From positions 2,107 to 66,106 of the forward strand of contig JAQBTN010000003.1 in assembly GCA_027728805.1 (NCBI GenBank): a DNA stretch of 64,000 nucleotides. Direction: 5' to 3'. The notes under the pieces are model-generated. The model worked only from the letters and a program-made list of their open reading frames with translations. It had not been told where the DNA came from and made no database searches. The stretch comes from Actinomycetota bacterium (lineage in GTDB: Bacteria > Actinomycetota > Actinomycetes > Mycobacteriales > Mycobacteriaceae). Of the stretch, positions 5,897-39,707 are shown piece by piece (the first letter of the stretch is position 1; each line of letters begins with the position of its first letter). A program made the position numbers and the translations under genes.

Positions 5897-8514
<2,618 letters not shown>

Positions 8515-27261: not shown

Positions 27262-30162
<2,901 letters not shown>

Positions 30163-30191: not shown

Positions 30192-30207
30192 CAGTAACGT
30201 GGCGTTC

Positions 30208-30885
30208 ATGACAGTCGTCGACGACACTTACACCGGTCATGTGGAGTCCCAGACCGCAGCGCGGCGCACCCTGCCGGGGGTGAGCATCATCAAGATGTCG
30301 GTGGGCCCGATGGATAACAACGCCTACCTGCTGACCTGTGCGAAGACCGGCGAGTCACTTCTGATCGACGCCGCCAACGACCCCGCGCTGCTGGTGGATC
30401 TGGTGGCCGAACAGGCGCCGAAACTGGAGTTGATCGTGACCACCCACCAACATATGGATCACTGGCTGGCGCTGGAGGCGGTCGCGGAATCGACCGGTGC
30501 CCCCACCGCTGCCCACCCACTCGACGCCGACGCGCTGCCGGTCAAGCCTGCCCGGTTGCTGGCCGGCGGCGAGGTGCTCGAGGTCGGGGATCTCACCTTC
30601 GACGTCATCCACCTGCGTGGGCACACCCCCGGTTCGGTGGCGCTGGCATTGCGGCCCGCCGGCGAGCGGACCGCGGTGCAGTTGTTCACCGGGGACTGCC
30701 TGTTCCCCGGCGGTCCGGGGCGGACGACAACGCCGGAGGAGTTCGATTCACTGATGACCGGCCTGGAGACCTGGGTGTTCGACGTGTACGGGGATGACAC
30801 TGTCGTCTATCCGGGACACGGCGATGACACCACCCTCGGCGAGGAGCGGCCCCGACTGGCTGAGTGGCGCGAGCGAGGTTGGTAA
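30208..30885 (+). CDS. MBL-fold metallo-hydrolase, glyoxalase II-like (Rv1637c-like)
   Basis: THQHMDH, GHTPGS, TGDCLFPGG, YPGHG metal motifs; TAACGT -10 seven nt before ATG. Confidence 0.93.
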   Translation: MTVVDDTYTGHVESQTAARRTLPGVSIIKMSVGPMDNNAYLLTCAKTGESLLIDAANDPALLVDLVAEQAPKLELIVTTHQHMDHWLALEAVAESTGAPTAAHPLDADALPVKPARLLAGGEVLEVGDLTFDVIHLRGHTPGSVALALRPAGERTAVQLFTGDCLFPGGPGRTTTPEEFDSLMTGLETWVFDVYGDDTVVYPGHGDDTTLGEERPRLAEWRERGW

Positions 30886-30934
30886 CCGCGCTCAATACAG
30901 CTCCCTGGTCGGCTTCGCTGCCTAGGATTCGGGC

Positions 30935-31975
30935 GTGATCAAGGAATCTCGGGCCGTTGGTATCCACGAGCACGGCGATGCCGACGCCCTCGTGAACGGC
31001 ACGGTCGAGGTGGGAGCGCCGGGCCAGAGCGAGGTGGTGGTACGAACCAGTGCTCTCGGGGTCAATCCGGCGGACATCTACTTCCGGTCAACCCCGTGGG
31101 AGGAAATCGCGCAGTCGTTGCCTAAGCAGATTCCTTCTTCGGGATCGCTGCGAGTCGTGGGGGCCGACTTCGCCGGGGCCATCGAATCCGTCGGCACCGA
31201 AGTCCGTGGCTGGTCGGTCGGCGATGAGGTTTTCGGCTCGGCCTCGGCGATGGCCGCGACTGGGGCATCGAGCGAGTACATCGTCGTCGATGCCCGACTC
31301 CTCGCCCCTCTCCCGAAGGCCCTAAGCCCAGACCGGGCGGTGGCCTGGCCGATGGTTGGAATCACCGCGTGGGAGTCGCTGTTCGATGTCCTAAGGATCA
31401 GAACGGACGGAGCCGACAGCGGGGCTTCCTTGTTGGTCATCGGTGCTACCGGCGGAACCGGTTCGGCGGCAGTCCAACTGGGCAAGACACTGGCTGGCGT
31501 TTCTGTGACCGCAACGGCAGGTTCGGAGTCCGGCAGATCGTGGTGCTTAAGTCTCGGTGCCGACGCAGTCGTGGATCACCGCAGGCCGCTGACAGACCAA
31601 TTGCCGGACAGCACCTTCGACTTCATCGTGTGCTGTTCGTCGGCAGCGACTTACCTTGACACCATGTCGCAACTGATCGCGCCGTTCGGTCACATTTGTG
31701 CGGTCATGGCCGATCTCGATCCGGTGCCTTTCGGCGGTCTGCGCCTGCGCTCGGCCAGCTTCGGGATGGAGTTCATGGGCCTGCGTTCGATGGGGCCGCA
31801 GATAGAGAAGCACGGCGCGATCCTCACCCAGATTTCGCATCTCATCGACGAGGGTCGGCTCGCCGACCTCTCTGCCCAGCGGCTCAGCCCCATCAATGCC
31901 GACACCCTGCGTCGCGCCCACAGACTGGTCGAACAGGGCGGCCAAGGCAAAGTGACGATCTCGCAATGGCTGTAG
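30935..31975 (+). CDS. MDR-family NADPH:quinone oxidoreductase / zinc-type alcohol dehydrogenase-like protein
   Basis: GVNPAD, GADFAG, ITAWESLFD, IGATGGTGS; no Zn-binding Cys/His set; TAGGAT -10 six nt before GTG. Confidence 0.88.
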   Translation: MIKESRAVGIHEHGDADALVNGTVEVGAPGQSEVVVRTSALGVNPADIYFRSTPWEEIAQSLPKQIPSSGSLRVVGADFAGAIESVGTEVRGWSVGDEVFGSASAMAATGASSEYIVVDARLLAPLPKALSPDRAVAWPMVGITAWESLFDVLRIRTDGADSGASLLVIGATGGTGSAAVQLGKTLAGVSVTATAGSESGRSWCLSLGADAVVDHRRPLTDQLPDSTFDFIVCCSSAATYLDTMSQLIAPFGHICAVMADLDPVPFGGLRLRSASFGMEFMGLRSMGPQIEKHGAILTQISHLIDEGRLADLSAQRLSPINADTLRRAHRLVEQGGQGKVTISQWL

Positions 31976-32000
31976 GAACACCGGTCACCAGCGACCCCCG

Positions 32001-32184
32001 GTTCCCGGGCGGCCCTGGGCGGACAACAAATCCGGCGGAGTTCGACTCACTCATGACCGGCTTGGAGACCGAGGTGTTCGGGGTCTACGGCGACGACACC
32101 GTCGCCTACCCGGGTCATGGCGACGACACCACGTTGGGCGAAGAGCGGCCTCGGCTCGCGGAGTGGCGCGAGCGCGGCTGGTGA
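32001..32184 (+). repeat. MBL 3'-end copy 1 (type A, intact frame, 60 codons)
   Basis: FPGGPGRTTNPAEFDSLMTGLETEVFGVYGDDTVAYPGHGDDTTLGEERPRLAEWRERGW, 55/60 aa identical to the active C-terminus. Confidence 0.97.
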
Positions 32185-32939
32185 TCGCCCGACGGGTGTT
32201 CGACGCGCACCTGCACATCATCGACCCCCAGTTCCCGTTACAGGAGAACAACGGCTACCTGCCGCCGAAGTTCACCGTCGATGACTACCTCAACTGCATC
32301 GCGCACCTCGGCATCAAGGGCGGTGCTGTCGTCTCCGGCTCGTTCCAGGGCTTCGACCAAACCTACCTCCAAGCGGCACTGGCTGCGCTGGGGCCGACGT
32401 TCGTCGGAGTCACTCAAATTCCCCACGAGACAGCCGACGCCGAGATTCAACGCCTGGACTCAGTCGGCGTGCGTGCAGTCCGATTCAACGTCCGCCGGGG
32501 CGGCTCCGCCGACCTGGGCCACCTTGATCGCCTCGCCCGCCGTGTCCACGAGATTGCAGGCTGGCACGTCGAGCTTTACATCGACTCCCGCCAACTGCCC
32601 GATCTGCACGCAACCTTGTCGAAGCTACCTGCGGTGGCCATCGACCACCTGGGCTTGAGTTCTGAGGGACTCCCGCACCTCCTTCGCCTCGTCGAGGTAG
32701 GCGCGAGGGTGAAAGCCACCGGGTTCGGACGGATTGACCTAGACCCCGCCGACGCGATGCGTCGCATCCTCGACATCAACCGCCATGCCCTCGTCGTGGG
32801 CACCGATCTTCCTTCAACCCGCGCGCCACGACCGTTCAGCGACGACGACCTCACCTCGCTCGCCGACTTCCTTGACCCTCGGGAATTGGAGGACACACTC
32901 TGGAACAACGCAGCCACGCTCTACCGGCTGGATCAGTGA
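32181..32939 (+). CDS. Amidohydrolase family protein (Amidohydro_2, 2-pyrone-4,6-dicarboxylate lactonase-like)
   Basis: FDAHLH, AVRFN, IDHLG, GTDLPSTRA; GTG overlaps the TGA of copy 1. Confidence 0.88.
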   Translation: MIARRVFDAHLHIIDPQFPLQENNGYLPPKFTVDDYLNCIAHLGIKGGAVVSGSFQGFDQTYLQAALAALGPTFVGVTQIPHETADAEIQRLDSVGVRAVRFNVRRGGSADLGHLDRLARRVHEIAGWHVELYIDSRQLPDLHATLSKLPAVAIDHLGLSSEGLPHLLRLVEVGARVKATGFGRIDLDPADAMRRILDINRHALVVGTDLPSTRAPRPFSDDDLTSLADFLDPRELEDTLWNNAATLYRLDQ

Positions 32940-32952
32940 CTAGCGATTCCCG

Positions 32953-33136
32953 GTTCCCCGGCGGCGTCGGAAAGACCTGGGAGGAAGGCGGTTTCGAGCA
33001 ACTGCTGGGCGACGTGTCCAGCCGGCTGTTCGATGCCTACGGTGATGACACCGTCGTCTACCCGGGCCACGGCGACGACACCACCCTGGGCGCGGAGCGT
33101 CCACACCTGGCGCAGTGGCGCGAGCGCGGCTGGTAG
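32953..33136 (+). repeat. MBL 3'-end copy 2 (type B, intact frame; ORF 32936-33136)
   Basis: FPGGVGKTWEEGGFEQLLGDVSSRLFDAYGDDTVVYPGHGDDTTLGAERPHLAQWRERGW. Confidence 0.97.
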
Positions 33137-33217
33137 CAACCCGTCAGCGGCGCGAGCTTGCGGCGGTCTGAGCCAGCCCCTCGACGAATAAAGAGAGACT
33201 CACCGGCGTCAGTCCGA

Positions 33218-33505
33218 TCACCCGATAGGTGGTCCCGCGGGAATAACCAGACCGCCCCCCGCCGTGACTACGGGGCCACCGTCGAGCGCCGGAGCGACGG
33301 CAATTTGGGGTGGCCCGCCGTCGGCTGGCACTACGACGTCACCGGGCTGGTAGCCGCCGTCACCAGAGTTCATCATGCAATCAAGAGAGGTCGGGTCAAA
33401 CATGCAGTCGTCGGCAAGGCTGGTCGGTGCTAGTGCAACTCCGACCAATGGCAGTGCGGCAAGCGTGAGACCGGCGGCCACACGGCGGTAACGGGAGGTA
33501 TTCAT
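33218..33505 (-). CDS. Small secreted hypothetical protein, 95 aa
   Basis: Signal peptide ending SLA-DD, two Cys, Gly/Pro-rich; TATCAT -10 six nt before ATG. Confidence 0.75.
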   Translation of the reverse strand: MNTSRYRRVAAGLTLAALPLVGVALAPTSLADDCMFDPTSLDCMMNSGDGGYQPGDVVVPADGGPPQIAVAPALDGGPVVTAGGGLVIPAGPPIG

Positions 33506-33620
33506 ATTCAGATGATAGGGGCTGTGACCTGCTCGGGAGCGGGGTTCGCAGATGACGCAACATGGTCGAGTCGAAGTCGTCGGCCGTGAAACACGCTGTG
33601 GTGGAGGTGGTGCCGCTGGC

Positions 33621-35051
33621 CTAAACGATCAGTTCGAAGTCAGGCAGGCTGAAGGTCTTGTCGAAGAACGGTTGCAAAGGCGCATAGAGGCGGAAGTAGA
33701 CGAACCAGCCGTCATCGCCGGTGGTTTTCATGTAGTTCTTCTCGAAACCCTCAGGCGCCTTGGCGCCGACATAGAGATCGACGCTGCCGTCGGGGTTCTT
33801 GACGAGATCCGGTAGGCGGCTGTCCAGGTTTGCGCTGCGGATGTCGGTGCCGCCGTTGTCGTAGGGGCGGCGGGTGTTCTCGCTGTAGAGGGTCAGCGCC
33901 CAGAACTGGCCCACCGGAACGTCTTTGGGGACCTGGAGCCGGTAGGTCTTGTCGGCACGCAGCAGATTGCCCTTGTTGTCGCGTTTGGTGGTCATGTACA
34001 CCTGTCCCGCGCCGACCGTCGGGTTGACCATGCCTGTGCTGGAGCCCACCGCCTCGTAGAACCAGGTGACCCGCTCGTCGAGTTCGAGGCGGGTGTCGGT
34101 CTCCTGCTCGAGGGAGAAATCGAAGCTCTTGTACCAGGACGTGCCGGGCCAGTACGGCTCGGCGAATCGGGGATTGACCTGGAGGTTGCGCGCCATCAAC
34201 TCGCCCATCGCCGCTCCCTTGAGCAGGATGCTTCGTTGGCGCGCGTCGGGGTCGAATGTCTTGCCCTTGTCGATACCCAGCGGCAGCAGCATCGCCATCC
34301 AGGTCTTGTCCACCGGCCGAACCGGCTCGGTATTTACGACAGCGGCCAGCGTGCGCCAGTAGTCAAGGCCGCGCGGTGCGGTTGCGCTCCACTCGACGTC
34401 TTTGTCCTCGATGAACCGCGAGGTCGCCAGCGGCTGGCCGACCCGGCCCATTTTCATCGTCAACTTGAACGAGTCGTAGTAGGACGGGTCCTTGTCGAGG
34501 ATGCGCAGCAGCACGCCGATGTTGTTCGTCGCGCTCTGGCGCACGTAGTAACCGGGCCGATCGAAGGTCGCGGGGTTCTCCTCGGGGCCGACGATGATGT
34601 ACTTGCCGCCCTTGCCCTGATCTGGACCGGTCAGACCGAGATCGGCGACCGGACGTTGCCAGAAGTCCATGACACCGCCAGCGGTCTGCCCGGCTGGGTA
34701 CTCGATCTCCAGTGGCCCGTTCTTGAGGCTGATGAAGTTGAAGATGTAGGGCGTGGTGAGGTTGGCCGTGACGATCCCGCGCTTCTCCTTCAAGGAGCGC
34801 AGCACGACGAAATCGGTCTCCCCGGTGACGCCGTAGGCCTCGGCCTGCCGGTCGCGCCAGGTGGTCACGCTGACCAGCGGAGTGCTCCACAAGTAGCACT
34901 GAGCGGCCCGTTGGTAGTCCATCTCGTCGTAAAGCCGCTTGGCGGCATCGTCGTCGAAATAATTGTCGACCAGCGTGATATCACCGACCGGGGTCGAGAT
35001 GACTTCCTTCCCGTGCAGTGTGGCCTTCTCAAGCGGTATCCCCTGCGTCAT
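33621..35051 (-). CDS. DUF1254/DUF1214 domain-containing protein
   Basis: TANLTTPY, DFWQRP..DLG..GPD.G.GG, FWALTLY, NPDGSVDLY, YFRLYAP; start uncertain (35051 or 35096). Confidence 0.85.
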   Translation of the reverse strand: MTQGIPLEKATLHGKEVISTPVGDITLVDNYFDDDAAKRLYDEMDYQRAAQCYLWSTPLVSVTTWRDRQAEAYGVTGETDFVVLRSLKEKRGIVTANLTTPYIFNFISLKNGPLEIEYPAGQTAGGVMDFWQRPVADLGLTGPDQGKGGKYIIVGPEENPATFDRPGYYVRQSATNNIGVLLRILDKDPSYYDSFKLTMKMGRVGQPLATSRFIEDKDVEWSATAPRGLDYWRTLAAVVNTEPVRPVDKTWMAMLLPLGIDKGKTFDPDARQRSILLKGAAMGELMARNLQVNPRFAEPYWPGTSWYKSFDFSLEQETDTRLELDERVTWFYEAVGSSTGMVNPTVGAGQVYMTTKRDNKGNLLRADKTYRLQVPKDVPVGQFWALTLYSENTRRPYDNGGTDIRSANLDSRLPDLVKNPDGSVDLYVGAKAPEGFEKNYMKTTGDDGWFVYFRLYAPLQPFFDKTFSLPDFELIV

Positions 35052-35161
35052 CGCCACCCTACTTCGGATTGTCTGCTGTTTGCTGGTCGCGTTCATTTCT
35101 ACCGCATTGCCCTGCTTCGGATCGAAGGGAATCCATTTCCCAGGTTGCGAGCTGACTTCGG

Positions 35162-35246
35162 GTTCCCCGGCGTGACTGGGCGGAGAACAACGCCCGATGA
35201 GTTCGATTCGTTGATGACCGGACTGGAGAGTCGGGTGTTCGGGGTC
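35162..35246 (+). repeat. MBL 3'-end copy 3 (type A, truncated after about 28 codons)
   Basis: FPGVTGRRTTPDEFDSLMTGLESRVFGV, then similarity is lost. Confidence 0.9.
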
Positions 35247-35447
35247 TCGGGAGCCTTTGAGGACGACGCTCACTGATCACCCTGGCAGTCGACTGATCAC
35301 CGGGGATCCGGTTCCAGCCTCGCTCCGGTGGTCCATGGACGCAGCCACCAACTCAAGGAAACATGGCTTGTGTCTATTCGGCATTTCAGCGCCGCCCAGA
35401 CTCTGCGTCGACCCAGACACGGAAACTGCGAGTCTTGGGAGAAAACA

Positions 35448-35696
35448 ATGGTCGACCATCGGGAGCGTCTAGGGACTCGCCGTCTGGGCCTGATCGGGCA
35501 GTCGCGCTCCGCAGTCATCGCGATTTCGCTCCGACTGTGGCTCTGGGAACGTGAAACTCGCGCGCTAGCAAAGGGTCTCGCCCTAGCATTCGTCCTGTTG
35601 CTCACCGGAGTGGTGGGGTTCCAGCTTTTGAACATGGTCTACTACGCACCCGGATCAGCCAATTTGACCCCCGACTCGGGATATTCTCCGTTGTAA
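35448..35696 (+). CDS. Small single-TM hypothetical protein, 82 aa
   Basis: GGGAG RBS before ATG; hydrophobic LALAFVLLLTGVVGFQLL segment. Confidence 0.5.
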   Translation: MVDHRERLGTRRLGLIGQSRSAVIAISLRLWLWERETRALAKGLALAFVLLLTGVVGFQLLNMVYYAPGSANLTPDSGYSPL

Positions 35697-35807
35697 GTCT
35701 CTCGAAATTCGCGGCAAAAGGGCCACGCTGTATTTCGCTTCTTTAGCTGATCGCCGGGGCCTCTGAACGGACCATAGTTAGAGAACACTCCCCATCCGGA
35801 ACATCCA

Positions 35808-35885
35808 GTGCCGGGGGCATCGGAAAGACCTGAGAGCCAGTGGGTTTCGAGCAGCTGCTCGGCGGTTTATCCAGCCGGCTGTTCG
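35808..35885 (+). repeat. MBL 3'-end copy 4 (type B, truncated, in-frame TGA replacing TGG)
   Basis: GIGKT*EPVGFEQLLGGLSSRLF vs copy 2 GVGKTWEEGGFEQLLGDVSSRLF. Confidence 0.88.
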
Positions 35886-36011
35886 CATCTGCGGAAGTGG
35901 CGCCGGTGCGGCTGGTGGACCTCGGTGGCACCCCCTATCGGGGTGAGGGACTGTGCCCTGCTTGATGGCGCATTTGAGTCGGCGGCGGACCGTTCGCTGT
36001 TAACGTAAGTG

Positions 36012-36482
36012 ATGCCCATCTCACGGCGGCATGCGCCGATAGTGTTCAGTGCTTTGATCGCCCTCGTCGTCCTGTCAGGTTGTGGCGCGCAGGATGCCAA
36101 ACCAGGGCAGGTATCTTCGCCACAGTCCGCCTCAGCAGCGAGTACGTCAGCCCCCGCGGGGAGTCCGGAGGGGGTCAAGGTTTCCGCTGCCGACCTGCCG
36201 GCAATCGTTGCGAACCGAACTTACCGCGGCAGTTCGGACGGGATGCCGTACTCCGAGTACTACGCGGCTGATGGCTCGTTGCGGGGAATCAGCGATGGGG
36301 AGGCTTATTCCGGCAGTTGGAAAGTTGTCGAGGACAAGCTTTGCTTCACTTACCCCACGGCCGACGCCAGCGAAATCGAGTGCTACGCCGTGTTTAAAAA
36401 GGGCGACTCCCTGACCTGGATCGATTCCAACGGGCGGGTAGTCCAGACCAGTTACGTCGAGGGTAACCCCGACGGCCTCTAG
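36012..36482 (+). CDS. Lipoprotein with DUF995-like C-terminal domain
   Basis: Lipobox LSG-C; YSEYYAADG...YSGSWKVVEDKLCFTY; TAACGT -10 just upstream. Confidence 0.8.
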   Translation: MPISRRHAPIVFSALIALVVLSGCGAQDAKPGQVSSPQSASAASTSAPAGSPEGVKVSAADLPAIVANRTYRGSSDGMPYSEYYAADGSLRGISDGEAYSGSWKVVEDKLCFTYPTADASEIECYAVFKKGDSLTWIDSNGRVVQTSYVEGNPDGL

Positions 36483-36553
36483 GTTTCCGACTCCTGGTCG
36501 CGGCGCAAACGAACAGATTCAGAACATCACGGCGACGGAAGGAAACGGCAGTC

Positions 36554-36973
36554 ATGGCCCAACGTCCCTACACCTCATGGAACGACGCGATCATCGCCGA
36601 GTTCCGGGCAAATGAAGGCAAGGTAGGCGGGCCGTTCGAGGGTGCGACCCTGCTGCTGCTGCACACCACCGGAGCCAAATCGGGTCAGCAGCGGATCAGT
36701 CCGGTGATGGCCTTCGAGTTCGATGACAAGCTGATCGTCGTGGGCTCCTATGCCGGTGCTGACGTTCATCCCGCCTGGCTGCACAACCTTCGCGCGAACC
36801 CGCATGCCCACATCGAGATCGGCGCCGACGCCTACGACGTGCAGGCCCGGGAGATGGAGTCCGACGAACGCGACGCCACCTTCGCCCGCATCGTGGCGCA
36901 GGCACCCGGATTCGCCGGTTACCAGTTGGCCACCGAACGGGTGATCCCCGTCGTCGAACTGCGGCGCCTCTGA
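36554..36973 (+). CDS. Deazaflavin (F420)-dependent nitroreductase family protein (Ddn-like)
   Basis: IIAEFRANEGKVGG, LLHTTGAKSGQQR, HPAWLHNLRANP, RVIPVV. Confidence 0.92.
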   Translation: MAQRPYTSWNDAIIAEFRANEGKVGGPFEGATLLLLHTTGAKSGQQRISPVMAFEFDDKLIVVGSYAGADVHPAWLHNLRANPHAHIEIGADAYDVQAREMESDERDATFARIVAQAPGFAGYQLATERVIPVVELRRL

Positions 36974-36974
36974 G

Positions 36975-37226
36975 TTGCGGTACCCCGGGGAAGGACCGAG
37001 AAGCCAGTCGGCTGCCGTCGCGGCCAAGCCTGTCGAGCAACTGCCCCGGGGGCCTTACCCGGCGTCGGCGGCAACGATCTGGGCGATCGCCGTATTGACC
37101 TTGCTGATCGGGCTGACGCTCGCAGTGCTCGTCCCCGCCGCCCTCTCGTCCGGCGATGCCCCGCGCGAAACTCCCGGCGTGCAAAGCAGTCTCGGCACTG
37201 ACGGCCCCGACGGCGGGAACCGATGA
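36975..37226 (+). CDS. Small membrane protein whose N-terminus overlaps a decayed MBL copy
   Basis: TTG start; one TM helix; TGA overlaps the ATG of the PrsW gene. Confidence 0.45.
   Translation: MRYPGEGPRSQSAAVAAKPVEQLPRGPYPASAATIWAIAVLTLLIGLTLAVLVPAALSSGDAPRETPGVQSSLGTDGPDGGNR
36978..37044 (+). repeat. MBL 3'-end copy 5 (type B, heavily decayed)
   Basis: CGGTACCCCGG core; GGAAGGACCGAGAAGCCAGTCGG vs copy 4 GGAAAGACCTGAGAGCCAGTGGG; TCGAGCAACTGC identical to copy 2. Confidence 0.6.
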
Positions 37227-38257
37227 GCGATCCGGCGCAGTCTCCGTCCTTCACGATTCCGCCTCGGGCCCCGGACCAGTCGGCCACGCCGCGATGGCCG
37301 CTATGGAGTCTGTACGTCGCCGCTGTCCTGAGCGGGTCGGCGATCTTCGTCGCGCGGTTGGCGCCGGCCGTCGCCCAGACCCCGACGGTGACCGCAGTCG
37401 GCGTGCTGGCCTTCGGAGTCTTCGGCGCACTCGTCGCCTGGTTGCTCAGCAGGATCAACTACTTCCGCACCCCGGCGCCGAGGACGGCGGCATTGGCCGC
37501 CCTGTGGGGCGGCGGCGCGGCGATCGGACACGCGTTGCTGGCCAACACTGCGATTCACGATCATTTTGCCGCACAGGGCCGTGTCGGGTCTTGGCCATTG
37601 TTCGCGCCCCTCACTGAGGACCCGGCCAAGGACATCGGCATTGTCATCGTTCTGCTGCTGGCGGGGACCCGACCCCGCAGCGCGCTGGACGGGCTCGTGG
37701 CAGGATCCTTCGTCGGTCTCGGCTTCGAAGTCGTCGAAAGCCTCACCCGGGCGATCAACAACGCGATCTCGCTCCATCCCGAGGGCCAGCGCGACAATCT
37801 CGGGTCACTGGCCACCGATGTGATTCACGAAGTCGTGCGCAACAGCTGGACCGGCCACATCGTGCTGACCGGTATCGCCGGCTTCGGCATCGGATATCTG
37901 CTGACGGCCCGGGATCGCTCGGTAGCGCGTCGCTTAGTGGCGGCCATCGCGTTGATACTCCTGGCCGGCGCCGGGCATCTGCTGTGGAACTCGCATCGCT
38001 TTGGACTTCTCTACGTGCTCGGGCAGTTCGGATTGCTGGCGTTATTACTGTGGTTGATCAGAGTCGGCCGCAGGCTGGAGGCGGCCGTCTATCTGCCCTA
38101 TCTGGCTTACGCACCGCTACCGGCGGATTCAGCGCTGGCGACGTCACGCACCGCAGTGAGGCGACGACGCCGGGCGACAGCGGCCCTGGCGTCGGCGATC
38201 GCCAACGGCGATGCACAGCGTGCACATGAGGCCGCCGACCGTCTGGCTCCGGCCTAG
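37223..38257 (+). CDS. PrsW-family intramembrane protease (variant EDxxK motif)
   Basis: APLTEDPAK, GFEVVES, GHIVLTG, GHLLWN; multi-TM. Confidence 0.85.
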   Translation: MSDPAQSPSFTIPPRAPDQSATPRWPLWSLYVAAVLSGSAIFVARLAPAVAQTPTVTAVGVLAFGVFGALVAWLLSRINYFRTPAPRTAALAALWGGGAAIGHALLANTAIHDHFAAQGRVGSWPLFAPLTEDPAKDIGIVIVLLLAGTRPRSALDGLVAGSFVGLGFEVVESLTRAINNAISLHPEGQRDNLGSLATDVIHEVVRNSWTGHIVLTGIAGFGIGYLLTARDRSVARRLVAAIALILLAGAGHLLWNSHRFGLLYVLGQFGLLALLLWLIRVGRRLEAAVYLPYLAYAPLPADSALATSRTAVRRRRRATAALASAIANGDAQRAHEAADRLAPA

Positions 38258-38271
38258 ACCACCTGAGCTAT

Positions 38272-38293
38272 TATCTGCGTATGAACGCAGATA
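38272..38293. promoter_or_regulatory. Inverted-repeat operator over the kmtR start codon
   Basis: Perfect 9-4-9 repeat TATCTGCGT-ATGA-ACGCAGATA; TATTAT -10 at 38269-38274. Confidence 0.75.
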
Positions 38294-38673
38294 CAGGAGG
38301 ATGCGCCCGCCGGCTGCCGGACGACCAGGTGGACCTGGTGGTCGAGGTGTTCCGAATGCTGGCAGACCCCACCCGCGTCCAGATCCTGTGGGCACTGGTG
38401 CGCCGGGAGATGTCGGTGGGCGACCTGGCCGACCACGTCGGCAAACCCGCCCCCAGCGTGTCCCAGCACCTGGCGAAGCTCCGGATGGCGCGACTGGTCC
38501 GCACCCGCCGCGAGGGCACCACCATCTACTACAGCCTGGACAACGACCACGTCCGACAACTCGTCACCGACGCGGTGTTCAACGCCGAACACGCCGGGCC
38601 CGGAGTGCCGGGCCATCACCGCAATGCCGACGACCTCAGGGTCCTGCATGCCGACACGGCGGCGCCGGCATGA
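38281..38673 (+). CDS. kmtR: ArsR/SmtB metal-sensing repressor, KmtR (Rv0827c)-like
   Basis: LPDDQVDLVVEVFRMLAD, SQHLAKLRMARLV, DAVFNAEHAGPGVPGHH. Confidence 0.88.
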   Translation: MNADTGGCARRLPDDQVDLVVEVFRMLADPTRVQILWALVRREMSVGDLADHVGKPAPSVSQHLAKLRMARLVRTRREGTTIYYSLDNDHVRQLVTDAVFNAEHAGPGVPGHHRNADDLRVLHADTAAPA

Positions 38674-39707
38674 CGCACCAGCCCCACGGCGGCCATACCC
38701 ACGGCCATACCCATGACGCGGGCCATACGCACGACGACGGCCATACGCACGACGACACCGGGCGGTTCGGCCGTTTCGGCGCGGCAATCCGCGAGGTGTT
38801 CGCACCGCACAGCCACGATGCCGCCGACAGCATCGACGGCGCGCTGGAGTCCAGTGCCGCCGGCATCCGTGCGGTGAAGCTGAGTCTGCTGGCATTGCTC
38901 GCCACGGCGGTCGCGCAGCTGGTGATCGTGGCGATCTCCGGCTCGGTGGCACTGCTGGCCGACACCATCCACAACGTCGCCGATGCGCTGACGGCGATTC
39001 CGCTGTGGGTGGCGTTCGCGTTGGGGACCAGACCCGCCACCCGCCGCTACACCTACGGCTTCGGTCGGGCCGAGGACGTTGCCGGACTTTTCGTCGTCGC
39101 GATGATCGCGCTGTCCGCGATCGTCGCCGGGGTGGAGTCGATCCGCAGGTTGGCAAACCCGGTGCCGATCAACCACGTCGGCTGGGTCGCCGCCGCCGGC
39201 CTCGTCGGATTCATCGGAAATGAGCTCGTCGCCGTATACCGCATCCGGGTCGGCCGCCGGATCGGCTCGGCAGCGCTGGTGGCCGACGGAATGCACGCGC
39301 GCACAGACGGATTCACCTCGTTGGCCGTGCTCTTCGGCGCCGGCGGAGTCGCGCTCGGCTTTCCGCTTGCCGACCCGATCATCGGCTTGGTCATCACCGT
39401 CGCGATCCTTGCCGTGCTCCGTTCCGCCGCCCGCGACGTGTTCCGCCGCCTGATGGACGGCGTGGACCCGGCACTGCTGGACAGCGCCGAGGCGGCACTG
39501 GCCGCCGAACCCGGGGTGACCGGGGTCCGCAGCGTCAAAATGCGCTGGATCGGCCACCGTCTGCACGCCGAGGCCGAACTCGACATCGACCCCACCGTCA
39601 CCCTCGTCGATGCACACCGGATCGCCCATGAGGCCGAACACACCCTCACCCACGCGGTGCCGAAACTCTCCACCGCATTGGTGCACGCCTACCCGGCCTC
39701 GCACTGA
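38670..39707 (+). CDS. Cation diffusion facilitator (Rv2025c-like) with His-rich N-terminus
   Basis: GHTHD repeats, ALLADTIHNVAD, ADGMHARTD, VHAYP; ATG overlaps kmtR stop. Confidence 0.92.
   Translation: MTHQPHGGHTHGHTHDAGHTHDDGHTHDDTGRFGRFGAAIREVFAPHSHDAADSIDGALESSAAGIRAVKLSLLALLATAVAQLVIVAISGSVALLADTIHNVADALTAIPLWVAFALGTRPATRRYTYGFGRAEDVAGLFVVAMIALSAIVAGVESIRRLANPVPINHVGWVAAAGLVGFIGNELVAVYRIRVGRRIGSAALVADGMHARTDGFTSLAVLFGAGGVALGFPLADPIIGLVITVAILAVLRSAARDVFRRLMDGVDPALLDSAEAALAAEPGVTGVRSVKMRWIGHRLHAEAELDIDPTVTLVDAHRIAHEAEHTLTHAVPKLSTALVHAYPASH

Follow-up and report, generated by a model that had tools for sequence, protein, structure and literature searches.

Insertion of an element into a gene that it supplies with a replacement 3′ end is a known principle. 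In Escherichia coli, phage 21 and e14 each make a single insertion in icd with the help of a tyrosine integrase encoded in cis, and provide a replacement 3′ end of the gene. In staphylococci, the staphylococcal cassette chromosome (SCC) elements, namely SCCmec, pseudo-SCC and composite SCC, are inserted at the 3′ end of rlmH (orfX) and moved by the large serine recombinases CcrAB or CcrC; SCC elements without ccr genes are moved by CcrAB in trans, and occupied rlmH sites accept new inserts. The tycheposons of Prochlorococcus reportedly consist of cargo segments lying between partial copies of the target gene, with some segments devoid of an integrase of their own. Here, we analyze a stretch of 64,000 nucleotides (nt) from an actinobacterium of the family Mycobacteriaceae (assembly GCA_027728805.1, contig JAQBTN010000003.1, positions 2,107 to 66,106 of the forward strand; hereafter, the window), in which a gene for a metallo-β-lactamase (MBL)-fold hydrolase is followed by an array of displaced copies of its own 3′ end (hereafter, tails) separated by unrelated accessory genes (cargo). 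Comparison with phages and with related genomes leads us to conclude, with high confidence, that the array arose by site-specific insertions, made repeatedly at an attachment site (attB) of phage type, with an obligatory replacement tail.

The MBL array shares features with each of these systems and is identical to none of them. As with phage 21 and e14, an alternative 3′ end of a metabolic gene is supplied and the original end is displaced, but the MBL site holds arrays of small units without an integrase in cis. As with SCC, a housekeeping gene survives insertion at its 3′ end intact, direct repeats of this end delimit tandem arrays, and some units lack a recombinase. However, the repeated gene end is ~200 nt long here vs. 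~15–20 nt in SCC, the units are about ten times smaller, the integrases known for the MBL site are phage-borne, and mobilization in trans is proposed here by analogy; on that analogy, SCC and pseudo-SCC at rlmH can be regarded as the functional analogue of the MBL arrays. Tycheposons differ in their tRNA targets, tyrosine recombinases, larger units and host lineage. Integrons and clusters of attC sites lacking integron integrases (CALINs) likewise have compact units of ~1 kb with one or a few complete genes, variable cargo and no recombinase inside the units, whereas the MBL arrays have no IntI, no hairpin-forming attC, no shared orientation of the cargo and no platform promoter, and their repeated element is a coding gene end. 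With respect to IntI, attC structure and cargo orientation, the MBL arrays fall outside the integrons. No description of this attB or of the arrays was found in the literature; the attB itself appears to be undescribed, as does a one-codon hot spot with arrays of tiny integrase-less single-gene units.

Displaced copies of the MBL gene tail

With a repeat finder and alignments, we found that the last ~200 nt of the MBL gene are repeated downstream, in the same orientation throughout (Table 1). We define the tail as the final 60 codons of the gene, starting from FPGG (TTC at 30703); the conserved YPGHG motif falls within these codons. An orthologue of the gene was found in 41 of the 41 related genomes searched, and tblastn of the tail against the whole 4.03-Mb assembly showed that displaced copies are confined to this array. 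The displaced tails number four, of which two are intact (c1 and c2), one is truncated (c3) and one is decayed (c4). A preliminary description of this stretch had listed five extra copies in the same orientation, of which these four stand, whereas the last one, at ~36980, is a chance-level alignment: the score of the supposed sixth tail (36975..37030, + strand; local alignment score 24–26) was equalled by 6–11 of 300 shuffles and by unrelated segments of the window. Each unit carries distinct cargo, as had been described before, and the assignments were confirmed by Pfam; the window units measure 0.6–2.2 kb each, and Pfam revealed no recombinase domains in the array. The c1 and c2 copies are still open frames (31966-32184 and 32936-33136, respectively) that overlap the stop or start codons of the adjacent cargo genes, for which recent arrival is a sufficient explanation.

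Junction alignments place the true start of the repeat ~17 nt upstream of FPGG (TCACC...). The left arm of c1 is TCACCAGCGACCCCCGG, preceding TTC at 32002, and that of c2 is TGACTAGCGATTCCCGG, preceding TTC at 32954. Every intact copy, and every phage tail described below, starts with TTCCCSGGCGG. The tails are of two types, A and B, which part immediately after this core, and the exchange therefore takes place in the core or just before it. What recombines is a short segment at the 5′ border of the tail; the coding tail is a passenger that keeps the gene whole. The preliminary description had instead envisaged an integron-like platform in which the coding tail serves as the recombination site; apart from the position of the site, this proposal finds no IntI, no hairpin and no common cargo orientation in its favor.

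Phage tails and integrases at the same codon

A tblastn search of a phage collection with the tail matched 12 phage records, all of them mycobacteriophages of subcluster K5 (Kratiovirus), including Larva, Kratio, Collard, Edugator and AlleyCat. In both Larva and Kratio, the tail matches gene 38 (“hydrolase” in the annotation), with a match that starts exactly at FPGG, and the start codon of the serine integrase gp39 lies ~20 nt from the K5 phage tail, on the opposite strand. Three more viral contigs have the same layout, with integrases that are 53, 45 and 38% identical to that of Larva, and each has its own left arm; when viral contigs were scanned again with a profile of the tail, the same seven contigs were recovered. 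All phage tails belong to type A (motif set PGRTT..SLM..LE). The type B motif, GKTW..FEQLL, is found in most bacterial genomes that have only one tail. In the K5 genome announcement, gene 38 appears only as a protein of 43 residues with a relationship to the C-termini of hydrolases, and attB is left unnamed (PMC5679794). GenBank gives Larva gene 38 (L021 4001-4183), and likewise its counterparts in the 12 phage records, as a 43-residue “hydrolase” or hypothetical protein, whereas the true homology extends over 60 codons from the attP core; the annotated 43-residue phage open reading frame (ORF) is therefore artefactual, a start codon having been called on what is a fragment of a gene.

Integrated relatives of these phages display the expected arrangement. 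In M. moriokaense DSM 44221, the MBL gene with its A tail is followed by an element of 10.5 kb that comprises DUF5131 and unknown genes; next come a Larva-like integrase, the arm CCTACGGTA and a displaced B tail. A Larva-like integrase (77–82% identical) is encoded in 9 of 401 species representatives of the genus, and in five of these nine genomes the junction was read: in all five, the integrase abuts a B-type tail, with the same arm. Sequence comparison thus identifies codon F194 of the uvrA-adjacent MBL gene as the predicted attB of the large serine integrases of Kratiovirus (K5) phages and their relatives. Four other integrases of the genus, 47–54% identical to that of Larva, were rejected as candidates because they have a different target site. 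Those of L213, L214 and L216 (genomes G355, G215 and G197), 47–54% identical to Larva's, adjoin another conserved sequence, TGCCTGGGCTGYGCSGACCTGCACCGC, and this sister integrase lineage targets another gene.

The window matches the phage pattern in that its array starts from the same nucleotide of the same gene. K5 phages carry the same gene tail, from that nucleotide, with an adjoining integrase, their integrated relatives leave a displaced host tail, and in the window the tail in use (c0) is of phage type A whereas c4 is of host type B. Unlike the phages, the window has units of 0.6–2.2 kb vs. ~62 kb, no integrase or phage genes, and left arms that are not those of Larva. A large serine integrase adjoining the left arm of a displaced tail is absent from the window array, and from the region within 10 kb in 79 of the 80 related loci analyzed below. 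The earlier statement that no integrase is present accordingly stands for the array and its vicinity, but the site is not integrase-free in nature, given that phages carry a large serine integrase beside the same tail.

Arrays and shared units in related genomes

For comparison, we retrieved the closest MBL orthologues with flanks of 10 kb, which gave 80 loci (81 loci with the window). One to four displaced tails, nearly all co-oriented, were found downstream of the gene in 26 of the 81 loci. An array was associated with an A tail in use (15 of 20 loci, compared to 11 of 61 with a B tail; Fisher p = 6 × 10−6), and the most distal tail is usually of type B, as predicted if insertion occurs next to the gene. 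The 40 inter-tail units are 308–4177 nt long, with a median of ~1.1 kb and none above 4.2 kb. Their cargo genes are complete and lie on either strand; they encode P450, alpha/beta hydrolases, amidohydrolases, enoyl-CoA hydratase, solute-binding protein, PepSY_TM and PAS-SpoIIE phosphatase, as well as arginase, GT2 with MFS, MerR with PNPOx, ACT protein and a RES-Xre toxin pair. A tblastn search of the loci, for which six integrase lineages and six recombinases from the genome of the window served as queries, gave two matches only, the M. moriokaense integrase and a 28-codon stub in L026, so that an integrase or phage remnant is present in one of the 40 units (L026) and missing from the other 39. 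Comparison of the units to phage DNA with tblastx yielded mostly GC-rich noise and one real match, the same L026 stub, which was confirmed by tblastn without sum statistics. No tyrosine recombinase (PF00589, the family of IntI) was found in the 80 loci, and the matches in the genome of the window are all located elsewhere. Repeated insertion at one codon boundary with a replacement tail, by small units that lack an integrase in cis, had been proposed in the preliminary description for the window alone, and is borne out by these 26 loci and by the units that they share.

Seven unit families recur in 2–4 genomes, at varying positions in the array. In all seven comparisons with the window, the identity of the unit exceeded that of the MBL gene body. 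The oxidoreductase unit is 90–91% identical at the nucleotide level in L036 and L049, and is present as a pseudogene in L060, compared to 71–84% identity of the MBL bodies in these three genomes; unit 3a is 95% identical to its counterpart in L026, compared to 80% for the MBL body and 87% for uvrA. Identity to L060 rises from 52–75% to 82–90% exactly at the tail start, position 30701. In the closest relative of the window, L023 (uvrA 95% identical), the array is absent; directly behind the A tail of L023 lies an ACT-domain gene, and then come PrsW and ArsR. The RES-Xre toxin-antitoxin cassette is found in M. agri (L071 10784-11835) and in M. rhodesiae DSM 44223 (L072) with 92% nucleotide identity and an end with a Larva-type arm. 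Units pass between species faster than the core genome diverges. The preliminary description had named an identical arrangement in relatives and scattered tail starts as evidence that would count against it; instead, arrangements differ between relatives, units recur elsewhere, and intact copies share their start.

Comparison of 24 unit ends with unrelated cargo showed no conservation at positions −40 to −19, whereas positions −17 to −1 moderately resemble the gene's own arm (46–71% match vs. a background of ~25–30%), with the consensus TCACCGGCGAC-nnCCnG. Several junctions bear, instead, the Larva-type arm (CGGTA), without homology to the gene. Such arms are present in L043, L071 and M. agri; they end the arginase unit of ENV421, where the arm still resembles the integrase-start region, and the RES-Xre unit of M. 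agri and M. rhodesiae. The arms of L109 and L123, which are bona fide integrase-bearing elements, are themselves partly gene-like, so that this integrase family can accommodate an arm of the gene-like kind. The window arms (GTCACCAGCGACCCCCGG and similar) are unlike those of Larva, L106, L108, L109 and L123.

Three further observations concern the arrays of other genomes. First, an ACT-domain gene directly follows the MBL stop codon in some genomes (its listed loci are L023 10679-11058, L025 10715-11089, L027 15616-15992, L046 and L051); in L025 it is enclosed by two tails, and in L027 it is located past the entire array. This “native” downstream neighbor may be an old cassette with a decayed tail. 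Second, at the junction that precedes the second or third displaced tail of L037 and L038, a PepSY_TM gene on the minus strand has its start codon ~24 nt away from the core of the tail. The promoter of this gene would therefore have to lie inside the displaced tail, and displaced tails may serve as promoters for reverse-oriented cargo. Third, inspection by eye of L014, from another species of the genus (G011), revealed two decayed B-type displaced tails (5990-6121 and 7380-7521) that flank a gene for a 454-residue lipoprotein-like protein, upstream of mmpL/mmpS, and arrays thus occur outside the clade of the window as well.

Origin of the arrays

These observations fit the following sequence of events. 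Insertion at the F194 codon would cut off the last 60 codons of the MBL gene, and a successful element would bring a spare tail that is joined in frame, pushing the earlier tail downstream. The window would then record at least four insertion events: one phage-type tail is in use, and the four displaced tails are the more decayed the farther they lie from the gene. The units are not prophages; each has a short left arm and one or two accessory genes that are complete, and lacks a recombinase. Most likely, they are mini-elements composed of an att half-site, a tail and cargo, and were inserted by an integrase that a phage or a larger element supplies in trans. Recombination between tails would later reshuffle, fuse and delete parts of the arrays, and some units would be left from the deletion of integrase-bearing elements. 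Taken as a whole, this explanation (a phage-type attB, spare tails, and mini-elements that are mostly mobilized in trans, with some fossils among them) is, in our judgment, rather probable. For the narrower claim that most units are, or were, mobile as small units via an integrase in trans, the scales are about evenly balanced; it is favored by the uniform small size of the units, their complete and tight-ended genes, the lack of an integrase remnant in 39 of the 40 units, and the reappearance of units in varied surroundings. The identity of the integrase that handles the cassette ends of the window is a matter of inference. A still broader proposal, that environmental mycobacteria carry an undescribed class of integrase-less mini-cassettes of 0.3–4 kb, each with an att arm, a replacement tail and 1–3 accessory genes, which would parasitize phage large serine integrases or a host recombinase and form integron-like arrays with fast turnover, as a gene-capture platform distinct from integrons, can be put forward only tentatively.

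Several points weigh against this explanation. In the textbook view, large serine integrases carry out no recombination between attP and attL, and attL is not among their targets; proximal insertion into an occupied site therefore needs an unproven tolerance. The model leaves unaccounted for the presence of a complete gene 0–30 nt from the left arm. Cargo 1 lies between two A tails in the window and L060, and between two B tails in L036; therefore, homologous exchange between tails also acts. True fossils exist, in L026 and M. agri. An integrase with an attP bearing the window left arm GTCACCRGCGAYYCCCGG was not found in the viral contigs or in the nine Larva-like elements of the genus, and the same search revealed no cognate integrase for the GTCACCGGCGACCCCCGG-type arm, that is, for the window's own cassette ends. 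Among the 22 array-bearing genomes, mostly incomplete metagenome-assembled genomes, 14 lack any large serine recombinase, and the only one in the window's genome is 33% identical to that of Larva. On the specific question of occupied sites, the RES-Xre unit of M. agri lies proximal to the A tail of a decayed prophage remnant, and an occupied site has therefore accepted a further insert.

The rival that survives best, although we consider it unlikely, is that all units are fossils, such that each interval is the deletion remainder of a separate large integrase-bearing prophage or island and nothing small ever moved alone. At least some units are deletion fossils. In M. agri, a 58-codon integrase stub with the Larva arm adjoins a displaced B tail on another contig; the L026 counterpart of unit 3a retains 28 integrase codons and a methylase fragment; the element of M. 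moriokaense is reduced, at 10.5 kb; and ~9 displaced tails in the 81 loci are 5′-truncated, as random deletion would produce. In the window, cassettes 3a and 3b are fused and the tail between them has been lost, and in L045 the cassette 3b gene starts right after the MBL stop codon. Nevertheless, 39 of the 40 units contain no integrase or phage remnant, and no unit exceeds 4.2 kb. Complete cargo genes end or start 0–45 nt from the core: the amidohydrolase domain of cassette 2, for example, is complete 2 residues ahead of the stop codon, which overlaps the c2 left arm. Small units with identical ends, furthermore, are found in different species at different positions of the array.

Homologous recombination alone is improbable as an explanation. 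Under this scenario, the ~200-nt tails would serve as portable homology for RecA-type crossover of circles or fragments, without any site-specific enzyme. The two tail contexts of cargo 1 (A/A in the window and L060, B/B in L036), the start of the homology with L049 right after the stop codon, and the A tail of L023 without a displaced tail are all compatible with such crossover. However, it would account for the reshuffling of tails and not for their first duplication; the tails are just 70–88% identical; units whose cargo is unrelated share one sharply defined left edge of the repeat; and several junctions carry phage attP arms (CGGTA) that have no homology to the gene.

We assign a marginally lower probability to a dedicated host recombinase, which would make the locus a true integron-like platform, with the gene-like left arm and core (11-6-11 nt) as a simple site on both partners. 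The resemblance of the 24 independent unit-end arms to the gene's own arm at −17 to −1 would be in line with this possibility, as would the absence of an integrase in cis from all units with the gene-like arm type and the many array-bearing genomes that lack a large serine recombinase. Against it, the 80 loci, searched up to 10 kb from the MBL gene, contain no recombinase gene other than the one phage-type integrase, the cargo lies on both strands, and bona fide phage attP arms can be partly gene-like (L109 and L123). Single strands of the site, when analyzed by DNA folding for a hairpin of the attC kind, do not fold unusually well (z −1.2 to +1.6). The GC-rich 11-6-11 stretch is presumably unlike dif, the 28-bp type of site at which the host XerCD acts on Xer/dif-type integrating modules (IMEX, pdif); a fuzzy genome-wide scan for it was too permissive, and at ≤2 mismatches the array sites alone matched. 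Finally, programmed switching of the C-terminus between stored alleles, as in shufflons or silent cassettes, is barely conceivable: intact alternative tails of both types, A and B, are indeed stored downstream, but there are direct repeats only and no invertase, the distal copies are decayed, the tails are conserved rather than diversified, and the intervening DNA is unrelated cargo that differs between genomes.

Insertion of mini-elements at the phage-type attB, if driven by integrases acting in trans, would represent a serine-integrase counterpart in actinobacteria of gene capture by integrons and SCC. The arrays would then supply environmental mycobacteria with accessory metabolism, and might provide mycobacterial genetics with a natural multi-landing-pad system.

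Cargo and flanking genes of the window

The features of the window are listed in Table 1. For the MBL gene, an alternative start at GTG 30124 is possible.

Table 1. Genes, tails and cassettes of the MBL array and its flanks (window coordinates)
Feature	Position	Strand	Evidence or remarks
uvrA, conserved left flank, divergent from the MBL gene	27262..30162	-	ORF, 966 aa; 95% nt identity to closest relative L023
MBL-fold hydrolase gene, Rv1637c-type uvrA neighbor	30205..30885	+	Pfam Lactamase_B, E 4e-14
Attachment region inside the MBL gene, TCACCGGGGAC-TGCCTG-TTCCCCGGCGG	30686..30713	+	Junction alignments; identity to L060 jumps at 30701
Tail c0, in use, type A (phage-like PGRTT...SLM...LE)	30703..30885	+	
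Cassette 1 cargo, zinc-type oxidoreductase (30935-31975)	30886..31984	+	Pfam ADH_N/ADH_zinc_N
Tail c1, displaced, type A, intact	32002-32184 (with left arm 31985..32184)	+	88% aa, E 3e-33
Cassette 2 cargo, Amidohydro_2 amidohydrolase	32196..32939	+	Pfam match spans residues 14-256 of 258
Tail c2, displaced, type B (host-like), intact	32954-33136 (with left arm 32937..33136)	+	63% aa, E 2e-21
Cassette 3a, small secreted protein (33218-33505)	33202..33555	-	95% nt to L026, 93% to L074
Cassette 3b, DUF1254/DUF1214 protein	33618..35145	-	Pfam
Tail c3, displaced, type A, first ~30 codons only	35163-35250 (with left arm from 35145)	+	E 1e-6
Cassette 4, possible small membrane protein, doubtful as a real gene	35328..35696	+	ORF only, no family match
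Tail c4, displaced, type B, c2-like, with in-frame stop and internal deletion	35808-35916	+	E 5e-5 to c2; repeat families D3, D4
Lipoprotein (36009-36482) and F420H2-dependent quinone reductase (36554-36973)	36009..36973	+	Pfam
Right flank: PrsW-type protease, ArsR regulator, CDF transporter	37223..39707	+	Pfam; locus comparison

Searches with the cargo cassettes gave no matches in the phage collection, where the tails alone matched; in the plasmid collection, the matches were limited to MBL genes of full length and amidohydrolases of distant relationship. When metagenomes were scanned with the amidohydrolase of cassette 2, 80 loci were returned, of which the best is only 75% identical and none is flanked by tails.

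The sole large serine recombinase of the genome (525 residues, 33% identical to the Larva integrase) is encoded on another contig (C30:5517-7090), with no MBL tail adjoining. The nearest tyrosine recombinase is a fragment at the contig end (C259:70345-70746), ~31 kb downstream of the array and ~4.2 kb beyond the window end, and no link between it and the array was found; other tyrosine recombinases (PF00589) are located on other contigs. The lipoprotein and quinone reductase genes lie beyond the last recognizable tail, have no bounding tail and are missing from L023. The ArsR and CDF genes of the right flank are common to many relatives, and in L024 arsR directly follows the MBL gene.

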